Source: Pseudomonadota bacterium (GTDB lineage: Bacteria; Bdellovibrionota_F; JAHFAK01; JBDREC01). Taken from it: 64,000 nt of DNA. The DNA is taken from positions 15,405 through 79,404 of the forward strand of contig JBDREC010000103.1 in assembly GCA_043820105.1 (NCBI GenBank), written 5' to 3'. Below, piece by piece: positions 42,220 through 50,890 of this stretch. The notes beneath the pieces are model-generated. The model was given only the letters and a program-made list of their open reading frames with translations. It had not been told where the DNA came from and ran no database searches. A program made the translations under genes and the position numbers. Numbering within the stretch: the stretch's first letter is position 1; every line of letters begins with the position of its first letter.

Positions 42220-43527
42220 TTATTTTGATTTAGCTTTTTTGTTTAAGGGATATTTATAAAGTAATCCTTTATAATTTTTAAGGATGATATCATTTTCATT
42301 GATACTATCAACATAATTGGGAAGAAGTGGTATTTTACCACCACCATCAGGCGCATCAATAACAAATGTTGGAATAGCATACCCACTTGTATGCCCTCGT
42401 AAGCCATTTATAATTTCAAGACCTTTTTCTATGGGGGTTCTGAAATGAGCTGAACCCACAATTGGATCACATTGATATAGATAATAGGGTCTAACACGAA
42501 TTTTTAGTAAATTATGAAAAAGTGTTTTCATTGTTTTAATATTATCATTAATCCCTGCAAGCAAAACTGTTTGACTTCCAAGAGGGATACCATAATCAGC
42601 TAATCTGTTGCATGCTTGACTAACTTCAGGTGTTATTTCATTCGGGTGAGTGAAATGAATACTTAAATATAAAGGTTGATATTTTTTAAGTATCCTTAAT
42701 AAATTTATTGTAATACGCTGAGGTAATACTACAGGTGCCTTGGTTCCTATGCGAATTATCTCAACATGAGGAATTTGTCTGAGTCTACTGAGTAAATATT
42801 CAATTTTATTATCTACAACAATGAGCGGATCTCCTCCTGACAACAATACATCTCTGATATTTTTATTTTGTTCTATATAGTTTAAAGCTTTTTCCCAATA
42901 ATTAACTTTAAAACGATATTTATCATTTGGTCTCATGATTCGAGATCGAGTACAATATCTGCAATTTGAGGTGCAAAATTTTGTTACTAAAAGTAAAACC
43001 CTATCAGGATATCTATGAACAATTCCAGGAACTGGACTGTCTTTATCTTCGCCAAGGGGATCAAAGTTTTCTTCTGGAGAATGTATGAGTTCTTTAGTTA
43101 TAGGAATTACAGTTTTTTTGATGTAACTATTTTTTGCCAGGCTTGCATAATAGGGGGTCATTGTAACTAAAAACTTATTTTCAAACAATGATATAGCTTT
43201 TTTTTCATCTTCACTTAATTTTATTATTTTTTCTATTTTTGAAAGACCGTGCACTCTGTTTTTCAATTGCCATTGCCATGAATTCCAATCATTATTACTG
43301 GCTTCAGGATAATATTTATTTCTAAATTCATCTGATGTTGAACTTATTGTAAAAAATTCATTTGCTTTTGAATCCCTCTTGTCTAAATAATTTATAGATA
43401 GGATACCATTCTGTAATGAATTTGTTTCTAAAGAATTGGAATTTATTAGATTACTAGCAAGTAAATTATTCTCAATAGAAAGTGGCGGAGGCTCTCCATC
43501 TTCTAAACCGATTATTTTATTTATCAT
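42220..43527 (-). CDS. Lysine 2,3-aminomutase-family radical SAM enzyme (KamA/AblA/EpmB-like) with approx 80-aa N-terminal extension
   Basis: WQWQLKNRV ... TPYYASL N-terminal signature; CxxxCxxC as CTSNCRYCTRS; extension rich in Asn/Ser/Leu. Confidence 0.75.
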   Translation of the reverse strand: MINKIIGLEDGEPPPLSIENNLLASNLINSNSLETNSLQNGILSINYLDKRDSKANEFFTISSTSDEFRNKYYPEASNNDWNSWQWQLKNRVHGLSKIEKIIKLSEDEKKAISLFENKFLVTMTPYYASLAKNSYIKKTVIPITKELIHSPEENFDPLGEDKDSPVPGIVHRYPDRVLLLVTKFCTSNCRYCTRSRIMRPNDKYRFKVNYWEKALNYIEQNKNIRDVLLSGGDPLIVVDNKIEYLLSRLRQIPHVEIIRIGTKAPVVLPQRITINLLRILKKYQPLYLSIHFTHPNEITPEVSQACNRLADYGIPLGSQTVLLAGINDNIKTMKTLFHNLLKIRVRPYYLYQCDPIVGSAHFRTPIEKGLEIINGLRGHTSGYAIPTFVIDAPDGGGKIPLLPNYVDSINENDIILKNYKGLLYKYPLNKKAKSK

Positions 43528-43751
43528 ATAAAACTATCTTAAAAATTAATAAAAGTTTATTTATTTATGTGACTATTACTATAAAATATCTTTAAGGAAG
43601 TAAATAGAATAATTATATAAACATAAAATATTATTAAAATAAGGCCTGCGGCTACAATTTTTATCAATATAATCAATTCCAATAGAATTTAAAATTTAGA
43701 ATTAATTGCCGGATAAAATAAATCATACGCTTGTTTTGTGTCTAGTTCTAG

Positions 43752-44557
43752 TTAGATTCTGCCTAAAAAGTGGGCAAAATAAATTGTAAAAAACTTCAGG
43801 ATTTTAAATGTCTTTATTTAAAAAACAATTTCATTATAAGTTAGATTATATTTTCCGCAATAATATTTATAGCAAAAAAGGCTGGAATATTACCTGTTTC
43901 AGCCCTCAATATCCACAAGCTAAACCAAGACGCTTTATATTAAAAGAAATCGCAGTAAAATAAAGCTGCAATCGAAAATTTAATTTCCCACGATATCTAC
44001 ATCTGCAAAAACCGTATCCTCTTTTCAATGCTGATATCGTTCCCTCAATCGCATTTCTATTTTTCATCTCTTCTTTATACTCATCTGTCTTCATCAACTT
44101 TCTTGCTTCATCATGATCGACTACTCTCTGTCGCCAGACTGATAACAATTGATAACTAAAACCTGCATATTCCAGGTCAAGCTCTAATGCAATTTTCCAG
44201 TCTAATCTAAATATCAGATTTTGAATCGTTTGCCTGTCAGGAAGCTTTTCCAGAAACTGTAATATTGTTACACACATTAATAACCTCGGTGACACTGGTG
44301 GTCTTCCACCTTCTTTATACATCTGTTCGAAATCAGTATCTAATATTTTGGGAAATATAAATTCATGACATACCTTCACATGATCTCTGATTTCTGGAAA
44401 CACATTTAACATGATACCCGCCTTGAATAATGATTGTTGATTGTACTTTGATAAGTCCTTTGGCATCTATATTATATAAGCATTATCTGCACTTTGTAAA
44501 GATCTTGAGCTTAATTATTTGCTTAATATTTTAGCCCACTTTTTAGGCAGAATCTAA
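43752..44557. mobile_element. Internally deleted IS5/IS1182-like element (approx 806 bp) with perfect 24-bp terminal inverted repeats
   Basis: TTAGATTCTGCCTAAAAAGTGGGC at 43752-43775 is the exact reverse complement of 44534-44557; encloses a transposase ORF lacking the catalytic core. Confidence 0.75.
43906..44466 (-). pseudogene. Truncated transposase: IS5/IS1182-like N-terminal domain fused to C-terminal tail, DDE core missing
   Basis: N-terminal GRPPVSPRLLMCVTILQFL ... (DUF772-like) joined to C-terminal AIEGTISALKRGYGFCRCRYRG ... NIKRL; only 186 aa. Confidence 0.6.
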
Positions 44558-44712
44558 TTAAATTTTAAACCTATATCTTTGTAAATTGTTATTAAATTTT
44601 TAGTTTTGCTCTGACCCTAAAATTCCCAAAATTCCAACCATAAAATTCTGACCAAAATTTAAAAATTATTCTAAAATTATTGGCAATTGTAGAATGTCAA
44701 ATCCTAATCATA

Positions 44713-45000
44713 TTAAACTTTAGCTGCGCCAATGACACAGCTCAAAAGATATTGAACGCCATTGTTAAGGTTACCTGAAATGCAATAACTCATTTCGTCT
44801 GTTTCATTACCGCTAGTGCAACTGGGAACGACCATCCAGTATGAAGGTCCGGAACCCACACCGCAATCAGCACCTGAGGCGCTTTCTCCTGATTGGCATG
44901 ATTTGCCCCGCGTACTTGGCGTGGTAGCACCTGAGCCAGTCGAACAGTACAGTCTTTTTAAGTTGAGTAGAGTGTGTAATATTGGAGGAGAATACTTCAT
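44713..45000 (-). CDS. Small Cys/Gly/Ser-rich protein with conserved MKY...P.L...L..L.YC.TGSGA N-terminus (paralogue 1)
   Basis: ATG at 44998-45000; paralogue of 63233-63577 with the same N-terminal pattern and Cys roughly every 12-15 residues. Confidence 0.5.
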   Translation of the reverse strand: MKYSPPILHTLLNLKRLYCSTGSGATTPSTRGKSCQSGESASGADCGVGSGPSYWMVVPSCTSGNETDEMSYCISGNLNNGVQYLLSCVIGAAKV

Positions 45001-45301
45001 AATTACCACCTTTATAACTGAATAACGCTGAGAAGATACGCAACAGTTAGTAGCTTTTCATACTTACTTCTATTAATCTTTAACCTGATAGGTTACCTAT
45101 TTTAGTTATCACCTCGTGTGTGGGTTCTAATGCATGTGACCGAACAAACACTTAGGAAATAGAATTAAACTATGCAAAACCAAAAATATTGTCAATGTGG
45201 AATATTGTCAATTATATTTTCTTCACTAACTGAGCAGGTAGTAGTTATGGGACTGACATGCGTATTAATAATCAAGATTATGCATTAGAAAAAAATTCAA
45301 A

Positions 45302-45320
45302 GGGGTCAGGCCTTGACAAT
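45302..45320 (+). repeat. REP-like element copy (GGGGTCAGGCCTTGACA core) upstream of RAYT gene
   Basis: Same core at 45397-45420 (direct) and 46567-46588 (inverted). Confidence 0.5.
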
Positions 45321-45396
45321 AGACAACAAATCAATAATTTTACTGAAAAATATAGCTAACTTTTGAAAATACATGAAATTATCAATATTAGAAATA

Positions 45397-45420
45397 GGGG
45401 GGGGGCAGGCCTTGACATTC
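45397..45420 (+). repeat. REP-like element copy (GGGGGCAGGCCTTGACATTC) upstream of RAYT gene
   Basis: Core CAGGCCTTGACA shared with 45302-45320 and the inverted copy at 46567-46588. Confidence 0.5.
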
Positions 45421-45589
45421 GGCAGCAGGTTCCCTTTTATACAAAGTGTTTTTTTCCTTTAATTCTTTTTCTTTCTCCATTTTTAAGACAAATCTATAAA
45501 GACTTTGAGCTACTGAAGCATTATTAATTGAACTCTGTTTGAATATTAAGCTCCATATATTTAGGAACTAATCAATTTAGGGGTAATTT

Positions 45590-46582
45590 ATGCCTAGACC
45601 TAAAAGAATTGAATATGAAGGTGCTTGGTATCACGTCATGAATAGAGGTGCTAGCAAGAAAAACATTTTTCATTCACATGATGACAGGAACTTTTTTTTA
45701 AAAATGCTAGCGCATGTCAGTGATCAATGGAATTTTCAGACACATGCCTATTGTTTAATGACAAATCATTATCATTTGCTTGTGCATACACCAAATCTTG
45801 GCTTGTCAGAAAGTATGCGACATCTTTCTTCAATTTATACAATGAGATATAATAAGAAATATAAAAGGGATGGAGCATTGTTTAGAGGTAGATTCAAATC
45901 AATATTGTTAGATAGGGATGATTGTGCATCAGCAATATTAAGATACATTCACCAAAATCCCGTAAAGGCAGGTTTATGTAAAAATGTAGAATCATACAAG
46001 TGGTCTAGTCACAGAGCATATTTAAATGAAAAAAATAAACCGTCATTTCTATATACAGATGAGATATTGAAAGATTTTGCAAAGATTAGTTCTAAGGCAA
46101 GGCGAAAATTGCATGAGTTTGTGACTGGAAGAGAATCTAAAGATTTTATTAACTCTATAGAAGGGCCAAGACCTGTATCTGTAATGGGATCAGAGGGTTT
46201 TAGAGATTGGATAAAAGATAATTATTTATATAAAGTAAACAAAGATAAGTTAATTTCAACAGCAAGAAGTAATAAGCGCCCTGAAATTATACCAAAGCAA
46301 ATGTTATCATATGTTAGCTCTGAATTCAGTGTCAGTAAAAAAAGCATTATGGAAAATAAGTCTGGATCCATTGCAAATATACCAAGACTGACATATTTAT
46401 ATTTATTGCATAAAATTGCAGGTTTTACACATAATGAAATCGCTGAGATAAGCAAATCAGGAAACAAAGCTTCAGTAGCTCAAAACATTTATCGTTTTTC
46501 AAGGAGATTGGAAGAGGATGAATGTTTGGGCGAAAGGATTAAAGGTATGAAGGGGAATTTGTTGTCGAATGTCAAGGCCTGA
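45590..46582 (+). CDS. REP-associated tyrosine transposase (IS200-like HuH Y1 transposase) with C-terminal HTH-like extension
   Basis: YHVMNRG N-terminus, HuH motif HYHLLVH, catalytic Tyr context RYIHQNPVKAGL; flanked by inverted REP-like repeats. Confidence 0.7.
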   Translation: MPRPKRIEYEGAWYHVMNRGASKKNIFHSHDDRNFFLKMLAHVSDQWNFQTHAYCLMTNHYHLLVHTPNLGLSESMRHLSSIYTMRYNKKYKRDGALFRGRFKSILLDRDDCASAILRYIHQNPVKAGLCKNVESYKWSSHRAYLNEKNKPSFLYTDEILKDFAKISSKARRKLHEFVTGRESKDFINSIEGPRPVSVMGSEGFRDWIKDNYLYKVNKDKLISTARSNKRPEIIPKQMLSYVSSEFSVSKKSIMENKSGSIANIPRLTYLYLLHKIAGFTHNEIAEISKSGNKASVAQNIYRFSRRLEEDECLGERIKGMKGNLLSNVKA

Positions 46583-46588
46583 CCCCTC
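46567..46588 (-). repeat. REP-like element copy in inverted orientation immediately downstream of RAYT gene
   Basis: GAATGTCAAGGCCTGACCCCTC is the reverse complement of the upstream REP core; overlaps the RAYT stop region. Confidence 0.5.
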
Positions 46589-49050: not shown

Positions 49051-49260
49051 ATGACATTTCAGAAAAGATTGCTTTATTTGAGAAAAAGAAACTGCTTAAC
49101 GATTAGGCAGGTGAGTGAAAAATTGGGGGTTTCACAATCAACTTATTTTCAGTGGGAAGTTGAATCGTTTCCTACGAAGCCGGTTTATTATAAGATGTTG
49201 GCTATGCTTTATGAGTTGGATCTTGAGATGTTGATGTTTGGGGATAAAAAAGACTGTTAA
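49051..49260 (+). CDS. XRE-family helix-turn-helix transcriptional regulator (69 aa)
   Basis: LTIRQVSEKLGVSQSTYFQWE HTH pattern; GAGG RBS; its 3' portion is duplicated at 50752-50890. Confidence 0.6.
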   Translation: MTFQKRLLYLRKRNCLTIRQVSEKLGVSQSTYFQWEVESFPTKPVYYKMLAMLYELDLEMLMFGDKKDC

Positions 49261-49338
49261 TTTGAATTGTTTTATATTATTATTTATTCCAATTAATTAT
49301 AACAATTTAAACTTAAGTTTATGCATATGGAGCTAATA

Positions 49339-50748
49339 ATGACCAAAAAAGAACTGGATTTAATTTTACATGAAGGGGAAAACTATAAAATCGAGTTCAA
49401 AGAAAATGTTAACTCTGATTTGTCAAAAGAAATGGTTGCTATGGCAAATTCATCTGGAGGTAGGATATTTATTGGGATTAATGATAAAAACGAAGTAATA
49501 GGTGTGAAAGCAACAAATGCTTTGTTATCTAAAATTCAGAATATGGCCCAGGATTGTGATCCCTCAATTATTATCAACATTAATACTTATAAAAATATTT
49601 TAATTATTAATGTTAAAGAAGGTTTAAATAAACCATATCGCTGTAGTAAAGGTTTTTATACTAGGAATGGTTCAAATTCACAGAAAATGACAACCAGAGA
49701 GATAACTGAATTTGTGCAAGCAGAAGGTAATGTTAGGTTTGATGAAAAGCTTCGGGAAGATATAAATATAAGTAAAAAAATTAAAAAAGAACTGCTTAAT
49801 CATTATTTGCAATTAGCAAACATTAATAAGACAATGGATGATGAATTTATACTAGAAAATTTAGGAGTACTGGAGCAAAAGAATAAGAAATCATATCTTA
49901 ATAATGCTGGGCTATTGTTTTTTTGCGATTCTACTAACCCACATCTTCATTATGCAAATATTACTTGTGCTTTATACAAGGGCAGTGAAAAGCTAAATGT
50001 TTTGGACAGAAAAGATTTTTCATCTGATATAATTTCTAATATCGAAGATACCATGTTGTTTTTGAAAAAGCATTTAAATCTTAGATATGAAATAACATCA
50101 TTAAGAAGAAAGGAAATTCTTGAGCTGCCTGAAGTTGCTTTGCGTGAAGCAGTAGTCAACGCTGCTTGCCACAGAGACTATTTTGAAAAAGGTGCCAATA
50201 TTATGGTTGAGATATTTGATGATAGGGTCCAAATAACTAACCCTGGTGGATTGCCTAAAGGCTTGTTACCAGAAAAATTTGGAACCAGAAGCGTATCAAG
50301 AAATCCTTTAATCACTTCATTGTTCCATCGTGTTGGCTACATTGAAAAAATGGGAACAGGTATAGGTAGAATAAGAAAGTCCCTCAAGGAATCAGGTAAT
50401 TCAGAAGCTGTATTTGAATATGACAGTTTTTTTTCAGTGATATTTAAAAGATCTATCTTAGAAAATGGAGCTAGTTCAGACATACAAGTTACCGGACAAG
50501 TCACCGGACAAGTTCCCGAACATGTCACCAAACTACTTAGTATATGCAAAGGAGAGTTGTCTCGTAGTGAATTGCAGGATATATTAAAATTAAAGCACAG
50601 AGAGAACTTTGTGAATTTATATCTAAACCCAGCATTGGAATCTGCTTTTATCGAAATGACAATTCCAGGCAAACCAAGATCAAGCAAACAAAAATACCGC
50701 TTAACAAAAAAAGGGAAAGATTATTTAAAGAAACTGCCTGAAAATTAA
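49339..50748 (+). CDS. Schlafen/AlbA_2-like domain protein with HATPase_c_4-like domain and C-terminal wHTH (COG2865-type regulator)
   Basis: N-terminal KELDLILHEGENYKIEFKE ... ANSSGGRIFIGIND; central REAVVNAACHRDYF ... NPGGLP ... SRNPLI ... MGTGIGRI; VTGQVTGQV linker repeat; start at ATG 49339 with GGAG RBS. Confidence 0.6.
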   Translation: MTKKELDLILHEGENYKIEFKENVNSDLSKEMVAMANSSGGRIFIGINDKNEVIGVKATNALLSKIQNMAQDCDPSIIININTYKNILIINVKEGLNKPYRCSKGFYTRNGSNSQKMTTREITEFVQAEGNVRFDEKLREDINISKKIKKELLNHYLQLANINKTMDDEFILENLGVLEQKNKKSYLNNAGLLFFCDSTNPHLHYANITCALYKGSEKLNVLDRKDFSSDIISNIEDTMLFLKKHLNLRYEITSLRRKEILELPEVALREAVVNAACHRDYFEKGANIMVEIFDDRVQITNPGGLPKGLLPEKFGTRSVSRNPLITSLFHRVGYIEKMGTGIGRIRKSLKESGNSEAVFEYDSFFSVIFKRSILENGASSDIQVTGQVTGQVPEHVTKLLSICKGELSRSELQDILKLKHRENFVNLYLNPALESAFIEMTIPGKPRSSKQKYRLTKKGKDYLKKLPEN

Positions 50749-50752
50749 GCAC

Positions 50753-50890
50753 GTGAGTGAACGAATAGGTGTTTCGCAGTCAACTTATTTCCAGTGGGAG
50801 GTTGAATCGTTTCCAACGAAGCCGGTTTATTATAAGATGCTGGCTAAGCTTTATGGGTTTGATGTTGATAGGTTGATGTTTGGGGGGTGA
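50753..50890 (+). pseudogene. Duplicated 3' fragment of the xre-like gene (approx 85% identical to 49100-49260)
   Basis: Direct nucleotide comparison; begins right after the Schlafen-like gene stop; lacks the 5' part of the HTH. Confidence 0.55.

Follow-up and report, generated by a model that had tools for sequence, protein, structure and literature searches.

The window, that is, the whole 64-kb stretch of DNA analyzed here, contains an 804-bp insertion sequence (IS) which, with a probability of about 0.9, is an internally deleted, catalytically dead, non-autonomous element of the IS1182 family. Both of its terminal inverted repeats are retained, and in the open reading frame (ORF) between them, the N-terminal domain typical of an IS1182-family transposase is directly followed by the C-terminal tail. 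The features of this short element and of related loci are collected in Table 1.

Table 1. Features of the short IS1182-family element and shortened relatives found in other loci. Positions refer to the window unless a locus is named.
Feature	Position	Strand	Remarks
Whole element, internally deleted IS1182-family IS	43753-44556	-	804 bp; 806 bp (43752-44557) counting the extra complementary pair
Terminal inverted repeat, downstream end relative to the ORF	43752-43775	+	18-bp core, then TGGGC
18-bp core, TAGATTCTGCCTAAAAAG	43753-43770		the same in L001 and L006-L017; followed by the copy-specific extension TGGGC
Terminal inverted repeat, upstream end relative to the ORF	44534-44557	-	exact reverse complement of 43752-43775
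Left flank, cTAgt	43748-43752	+	TA at -4/-3 from the tip
Right flank, atTAa	44557-44561	+	mirror image of the left signature
Sequences bordering the insertion			...GTTCTAGT on one side, ATTAAATTT... on the other
Marker string for copies of the element			TAGATTCTGCCTAAAAAGTGGGC
Truncated transposase ORF	43906-44466	-	186 aa, between the two repeats
NCBI version of the ORF, MFH1729766.1	start at 44412	-	168 aa, starts at an internal Met
Codons 1-123, N-terminal DUF772-type domain	44098-44466	-	presumed DNA-binding; profile 2-122, 193.8 bits; Pfam DUF772
Codons 120-186 and stop, C-terminal DDE tail	43906-44109	-	NAIEGT glutamate motif; profile 444-506, 98.4 bits
Deletion junction zone, codons 120-123 (EARK)	44096-44109	-	spanned by both the N-side and the tail-side homologies
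Junction sequence, GATGAAGCAAGAAAGTTGATGAAG	about 44091-44114	-	
Promoter-like site, TTTACA-18-TATAAT	44471-44500	-	11/12 matches; immediately precedes the ATG at 44466; consensus match only
Solo end	L006		19-mer scan
Miniature element of about 127 bp	L007 874-1000		both ends, TTAGATTCTGCCTAAAAAG ... CTTTTTAGACAGAATCTAT; no coding capacity; MAG of an "uncultured proteobacterium"
Partly deleted copy	L008		19-mer scan
Truncated end	L009		19-mer scan
Independently shortened relative of about 1.39 kb	L003 878-2274		279-aa N-terminal ORF and 84-aa tail ORF; ends TAGATTGTGCTGAAAAAGCC

Ends and Extent of the Element

TTAGATTCTGCCTAAAAAGTGGGC at one end and its exact reverse complement at the other constitute a perfect 24-bp inverted repeat; the window has no further match to TTAGATTCTGCCTAAAAAGTGGGC at up to three mismatches. 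The termini, TAGATTC...GAATCTA, are the same as in the full-length relatives described below. Because the outermost base of the repeat differs among these relatives, being T, A, G, or C, the element proper most likely has 23-bp repeats and the extent given in Table 1, and the 24th complementary pair is probably flanking sequence. The repeat can be extended to 31 nt at 94% match because both flanks carry a mirror-symmetric site signature.

Full-Length Relatives and the Lineage

A word-indexed protein search with the ORF returned the ORF itself (P0001, 168 aa, on a 123-kb contig of an NCBI MAG) and fragments of longer transposases, whose contigs hold complete elements. One of these elements (L001) is 1,820 bp long and has 31-bp perfect repeats, the outer 19 bases of which are those of the short element. 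Its transposase gene contains an in-frame TGA at 517-519 (QL*SVWR), where both the truncated ORF and P0278 have Leu. P0278 (on L011), found by profile search, is an intact 513-aa version of the L001 transposase without the stop; the intact and the nonsense-bearing copies of this IS occur in different samples. Profile search also yielded P0279 (on L010), which is 85% identical to P0278, and P0130, a full-length transposase present on L012-L017, several of which are marine metagenomes. All three pass the NCBIfam IS1182 cut-off of 270 bits (288 for P0278, 277 for P0279, and 280 for P0130), which places the lineage in the IS1182 family, with the short element as its truncated derivative.

The full-length relatives occur in metagenomes, are 1.78-1.82 kb long (1,784-1,818 bp, and 1,820 bp for L001), possess terminal inverted repeats, and share 67-78% amino acid identity with the truncated ORF over the retained segments. 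L001, L010-L017, and the short element all end in the same 18-bp tip. The lineage defined by this tip together with TA two bases outside the ends was seen only in metagenomes and MAGs.

A 19-mer scan of genomes and metagenomes yielded four more loci (L006-L009), none of them a second copy of the short element, and a search of a plasmid collection in the distant mode gave no match to it. The L007 miniature element is a true MITE of this IS1182 lineage, and L003 and L008 are further copies shortened independently. The shortened relative in L003 adjoins a threonyl-tRNA synthetase gene and a gene for an ankyrin-repeat protein.

The Truncated Transposase and the Deletion

The ORF begins with an M..L..YNQ.SLF motif, located upstream of the start chosen in the NCBI record and conserved in the relatives. 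It has two Pfam matches, DUF772 at aa 54-126 and DDE_Tnp_1_6 at aa 118-180. The latter corresponds to profile positions 61-124 of 125, that is, to the C-terminal half only, and the middle of the transposase is absent. The domain order of the IS1182 family (N-terminal DUF772, then a DDE region ending in DDE_Tnp_1_6) is nevertheless present. The best NCBIfam model is IS1182 (NF033551), matched at positions 5-118 of 488 and in the tail; the score of 101.1 bits, in two stretches, is below the cut-off of 270 because the catalytic core is deleted.

To measure the extent of the deletion, five full-length relatives were combined in an HMM of 513 positions. Positions 2-122 and 444-506 of this profile are matched by the ORF, and positions 123-443 (about 321 positions, or about 970 bp) are absent. 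The same two-block picture was obtained by tblastn and by blastn against the 1,820-bp L001 element, where positions 113-462 of the short element correspond to 108-458 of the full one (75%) and positions 456-628 to 1429-1601 (73%). Beyond these blocks, the two elements match in the 19-bp tips only. There is an overlap of 7 nt between the blastn segments and of four residues (aa 120-123, EARK; 44098-44109) between the HMM domains, which suggests that the deletion probably occurred between short similar stretches in the same frame. A short-word blast against L001, L010, and L012 narrowed the breakpoint only to the junction zone of about 14 nt, the true parent being unsampled.

The gap contains the motifs RIDSTH (residue 145 of the L001 protein) and YTDQGY (339) and two CxxC motifs (386 and 412), and NAIEGT (464) is kept. 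By analogy with enzymes of the IS4/IS5 type, RIDSTH, YTDQGY, and NAIEGT would carry the D, D, and E residues of the catalytic triad. The truncated protein lacks the Cys cluster and, on this assignment, both catalytic aspartates; it keeps only the glutamate segment of the triad and cannot catalyze transposition.

The sequence-only reading had described both a perfect 24-bp terminal inverted repeat and an IS5/IS1182-like N-terminus joined to a C-terminal tail with no catalytic core. Both descriptions agree with our results, the former with the exact reverse complements at the two ends and the latter with Pfam, NCBIfam, blastn, tblastn, and the HMM. It had also allowed for a coincidental palindrome should there be no full-length relatives and no further copies of the ends; L001/L011, L010, and L012-L017 carry the same ends.

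Insertion Site

The site signature was derived from 27 unique flanks, taken from 17 loci and the short element. TA is found at positions -4/-3 from the tip in 22 of them, against a background of 7%, and C is frequent at -5. Both flanks of the short element carry this TA, which argues that we are dealing with a genuine insertion, made by the transposase of this lineage, and not with a chance palindrome.

Within the IS1182 family, target duplications vary or are lacking, and some members use palindromic targets. No direct repeat flanks the short element, the flanks being mirror-symmetric, and no target-site duplication of 2-4 bp is consistent across the copies of the lineage, some metagenome contigs of which have chimeric flanks. 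For instance, L017 consists of the left flank of L014 and the right flank of L015, so that a duplication test cannot rely on pairs of flanks taken from short metagenome contigs. A further assembly artefact was observed in L002, where Nextera adapter sequence (CTGTCTCTTATACACATCT...) is present at both contig ends (1-44 and 1849-1892). ISPse1 makes a 4-bp target duplication (PMC3281130); with IS1272, target hairpins are replaced and no duplication arises (PMC5678879). A duplication is likewise not evident at the short element, which is compatible with the IS1182 family.

Full-length copies are often found next to another IS, at a distance of exactly 2 bp from its ...CTA tip. In L011 (1-66), the copy abuts the end of a related IS (GCAAAATCTA-ca-TAGATTC). 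In L010 (about 2116-2135), L012 (about 1967-1986), and L013 (about 1785-1804), the copies abut AACNCCGAACNNGCYCTA, which in these three loci adjoins an ORF of 446-449 aa, with a weak DUF772 match in L010. Both orientations are represented by L012 and L013. These arrangements suggest that the lineage may target IS ends.

In-Place Relic or Mobile Short Form

Our preferred scenario, to which we give slightly better than an even chance, is a deletion in place after the insertion of a once-complete copy. A complete IS1182-family IS of about 1.8 kb would have inserted, by ordinary DDE transposition, into AT-rich intergenic DNA 225 bp upstream of a kamA-like gene, at a target that fits the lineage preference Y-TA-NN / element / NN-TA-R. 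Later, the transposase gene would have lost about 970 bp between two short similar stretches, and with them profile positions 123-443. Both terminal repeats, both non-coding ends, the promoter-like site, and the in-frame ORF would have been left over, and the remaining 186-aa product would combine the presumed DNA-binding N-terminal domain with the last 65 or so residues, including the glutamate motif. The anatomy, the assignment to the family, the size of the deletion, and the site signature are established by the sequence, whereas the order of events, insertion first and deletion second, is what we infer, as is the DNA-binding role of the N-terminal domain.

This scenario fits because the element is single and no partner was found. 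The window contains one copy and one transposase-like region (tblastn and end search), and the protein cluster of the ORF is a singleton known from one contig. Among NCBI-sourced full-length relatives, identity does not exceed about 41%, and none is close among the annotated proteins of the MAG. The exact 24-mer has no match in 185,579 species-representative genomes, a set from which the source genome is absent. For sister assemblies, exact-protein queries with KamA and with both forms of the ORF product, 168 aa and 186 aa, returned none on record. No syntenic sister genome for an empty-site test was obtained via KamA orthologues, the nearest KamA relatives being about 60% identical in full-length matches and at most 64% among the matches listed. 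One-off deletions of this kind are usual, as 11 other short fused proteins among the best 150 representatives, all singletons, illustrate.

The absence of a partner and of further copies is weak evidence in itself, as only 64 kb of the genome was seen, MAG assemblies commonly lose or collapse multi-copy IS, and PGAP makes no protein record for pseudogenes or contig-edge genes. The age of the element is likewise loosely constrained. Signs of recency are the perfect ends, the intact ORF, and the near absence of private changes in the ORF: of the 166 columns that do not vary among five full-length relatives, it departs at one, whereas the more divergent full-length proteins P0130, P0131, and P0132 have more such changes. 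The perfect ends are a weak clock because 18 of the 23 repeat bases belong to the core that all members of the lineage share; the absence of changes at 46 sites only bounds the neutral divergence to a few percent.

Alternatively, the 804-bp form could itself be mobile, having reached this site already deleted by means of transposase provided in trans by another, full-length copy within the cell. The sequence-only reading had taken the perfect ends to imply recent mobility, presumably through a full-length copy acting in trans. As the catalytic core is missing, the element cannot move by itself, and it could move only if the cognate full-length transposase were supplied. All cis elements (perfect ends and complete non-coding termini) are intact, the retained coding segments show no decay, and full-length, intact-looking transposases exist elsewhere (P0278, P0279, and P0130). 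At least one miniature derivative that keeps both ends, the MITE in L007, belongs to the lineage, which makes trans-mobilizable derivatives plausible. The flanks carry the site signature of the transposase, but the same signature is expected if the full-length parent had inserted, and the intact ORF, promoter-like site, and perfect ends would fit a mobilized or a functional short form equally well. Set against this are the single known copy with its one protein record on one contig, the annotation of the MAG, which contains no close full-length partner, and the comparable fused forms elsewhere, all of which are singletons. Nothing found supports the claim of recent mobility: there is one copy in the window, the protein cluster has one member, and the nearest NCBI full-length relative is about 41% identical. 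The search for full-length copies with the same ends, which the sequence-only reading had recommended, was successful in metagenomes and gave none close among the annotated proteins of the MAG. We regard an arrival in the deleted form as unlikely, though to be taken seriously, and with deletion in place as the preferred reading, the element is probably an immobile, recently made relic in this genome.

Fused Short Transposases

Of 1.84 billion representatives searched exhaustively with HMMER, the best 150 were inspected. Most of the strong matches are 490-570 aa long and match in two stretches. In the 11 short proteins mentioned above, the N-terminal domain is fused to the C-terminal region. 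The right breakpoints of three lie near position 440, those of two near 404, and those of another three near 375; that of our ORF is at profile position 444. Since all 11 are singletons, found on one or two contigs each, and the breakpoints vary, such fusions look like sporadic, independent decay products.

A different explanation is that the 186-aa ORF has been kept for a function, its product binding IS ends or pairing with the full-length transposase and so damping transposition. Truncated proteins that damp transposition include Tn5 Inh, IS1 InsA, and the P-element KP repressor, and the domain content of our ORF would fit this analogy, the assumed DNA-binding and multimerization parts being kept and catalysis lost. 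In favor of this, the ORF is an intact, in-frame fusion preceded by a promoter-like site, conserved residues are kept, and the fused architecture occurs in 12 of the best 150 representative clusters, four of them with right breakpoints near 440. Yet each of these proteins is a singleton, with no conserved orthologous family, and the breakpoints differ. One deletion in three would be in frame by chance, and the search recovers in-frame fusions only, so that the recurrence is inflated. Moreover, no target transposase is seen in this genome. We consider a retained function highly improbable. The more general proposal, that the protein is a recurrently generated trans-dominant regulator of IS1182-type transposition, with the fusions reflecting a deletion hotspot or selection, seems to us just as doubtful.

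Finally, a coincidental palindrome around an unrelated small ORF, which has the AT-rich context in its favor and nothing else, can be dismissed with near certainty, as 100 dinucleotide-preserving shuffles produced 0 chance matches to the repeat, the ends are those of 1.8-kb elements encoding homologous transposases, and the ORF is homologous to both ends of these transposases.

Comparison with Known Elements

The short element shares with the IS1182 family (NF033551; Pfam DUF772 and DDE_Tnp_1 / DDE_Tnp_1_6) a homologous N-terminal domain and C-terminal tail, and its terminal inverted repeats are common to it and to the transposase-encoding elements. It differs in the loss of about 321 profile positions with both aspartates, which leaves the triad incomplete. 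IS1182-family elements are about 1.3-1.95 kb long (the ISfinder range); at 804 bp the short element is outside this range, whereas its relatives of 1,784-1,818 bp are within it.

Prokaryotic MITEs usually measure 50-500 bp, and those of type I are IS-derived and non-autonomous (PMC10969869). Like a type I MITE, the short element is IS-derived and non-autonomous, has terminal inverted repeats, and shares its internal sequence with the parent IS (PMC10969869), and like a MITE it has repeats that match those of the autonomous element. In contrast to a MITE, it exceeds 500 bp, holds a 186-aa ORF, and, where MITEs form several dispersed copies in a genome, has one known copy. The MITE label was rejected on these grounds of size, coding content, and copy number.

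The maize Ds element, compared with Ac, and the Drosophila KP element, compared with the P element, are internally deleted DNA transposons that encode truncated transposases. The short element resembles both in its internal deletion, the preservation of both ends, and an in-frame protein with an N-terminal, supposedly DNA-binding part and no catalytic center. Ds and KP are eukaryotic and multi-copy, and trans-mobilization (Ds) or repression (KP) has been established experimentally, whereas the short element is bacterial and has one known copy; the likeness is in form only.

Genomic Surroundings

AT-rich intergenic DNA surrounds the short element, which lies 225 bp upstream of a co-oriented gene of the KamA family of radical SAM proteins (42220-43527), and the insertion may affect expression of the kamA-like operon. 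Rfam and tRNA scans detected no RNA gene or tRNA near the element.

Another mobile element, unrelated to the first, is situated about 750 bp from it (45301-46587). The protein encoded by its ORF (45590-46582, forward strand, 330 aa) combines an IS200-like/RAYT Y1 transposase domain with a DnaA-C-like helix-turn-helix; the NCBIfam REP_Tyr_transpos score is 79.5 bits against a cut-off of 80, and Pfam Y1_Tnp is matched. The ORF is flanked by inverted GGGGTCAGGCCTTGACA repeats (45301-45331 and 45401-45442 versus 46545-46587), and a paralog with at least 90% identity is present on another contig of the same MAG (MFH1728435.1).

Directly beside the short element, a patch of about 45-50% GC (44700-45050) stands out from a region of about 30% GC. 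It gave no Rfam match (E<=1), no Pfam match in its ORFs, and no plasmid or phage match, and its folding does not surpass that of shuffled sequence (z = -0.45 and +0.75). A 159-nt direct repeat with 86% identity (49085-49243 and 50727-50885) is associated with a 475-aa ORF (49321-50748) that has no NCBIfam match; the first copy is just upstream of the ORF and the second overlaps its 3' end. The repeat and the ORF may constitute another mobile or duplicated unit.

Significance

The short element itself is an ordinary decayed copy of a known kind of IS, with nothing surprising to a specialist. For annotation purposes, its ORF should be labeled as a truncated, catalytically dead IS1182-family transposase in a non-autonomous element. 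Mildly interesting by-products of the analysis are the TA-NN signature, the siting of copies 2 bp from ...CTA tips, and the recurrent in-frame fusions of the transposase N-terminus to the C-terminal tail. Through its relatives, the element leads to an apparently undescribed lineage of the IS1182 family, which includes copies in marine metagenomes and is distinguished by a sharply conserved 18-bp tip and the TA-NN insertion signature.
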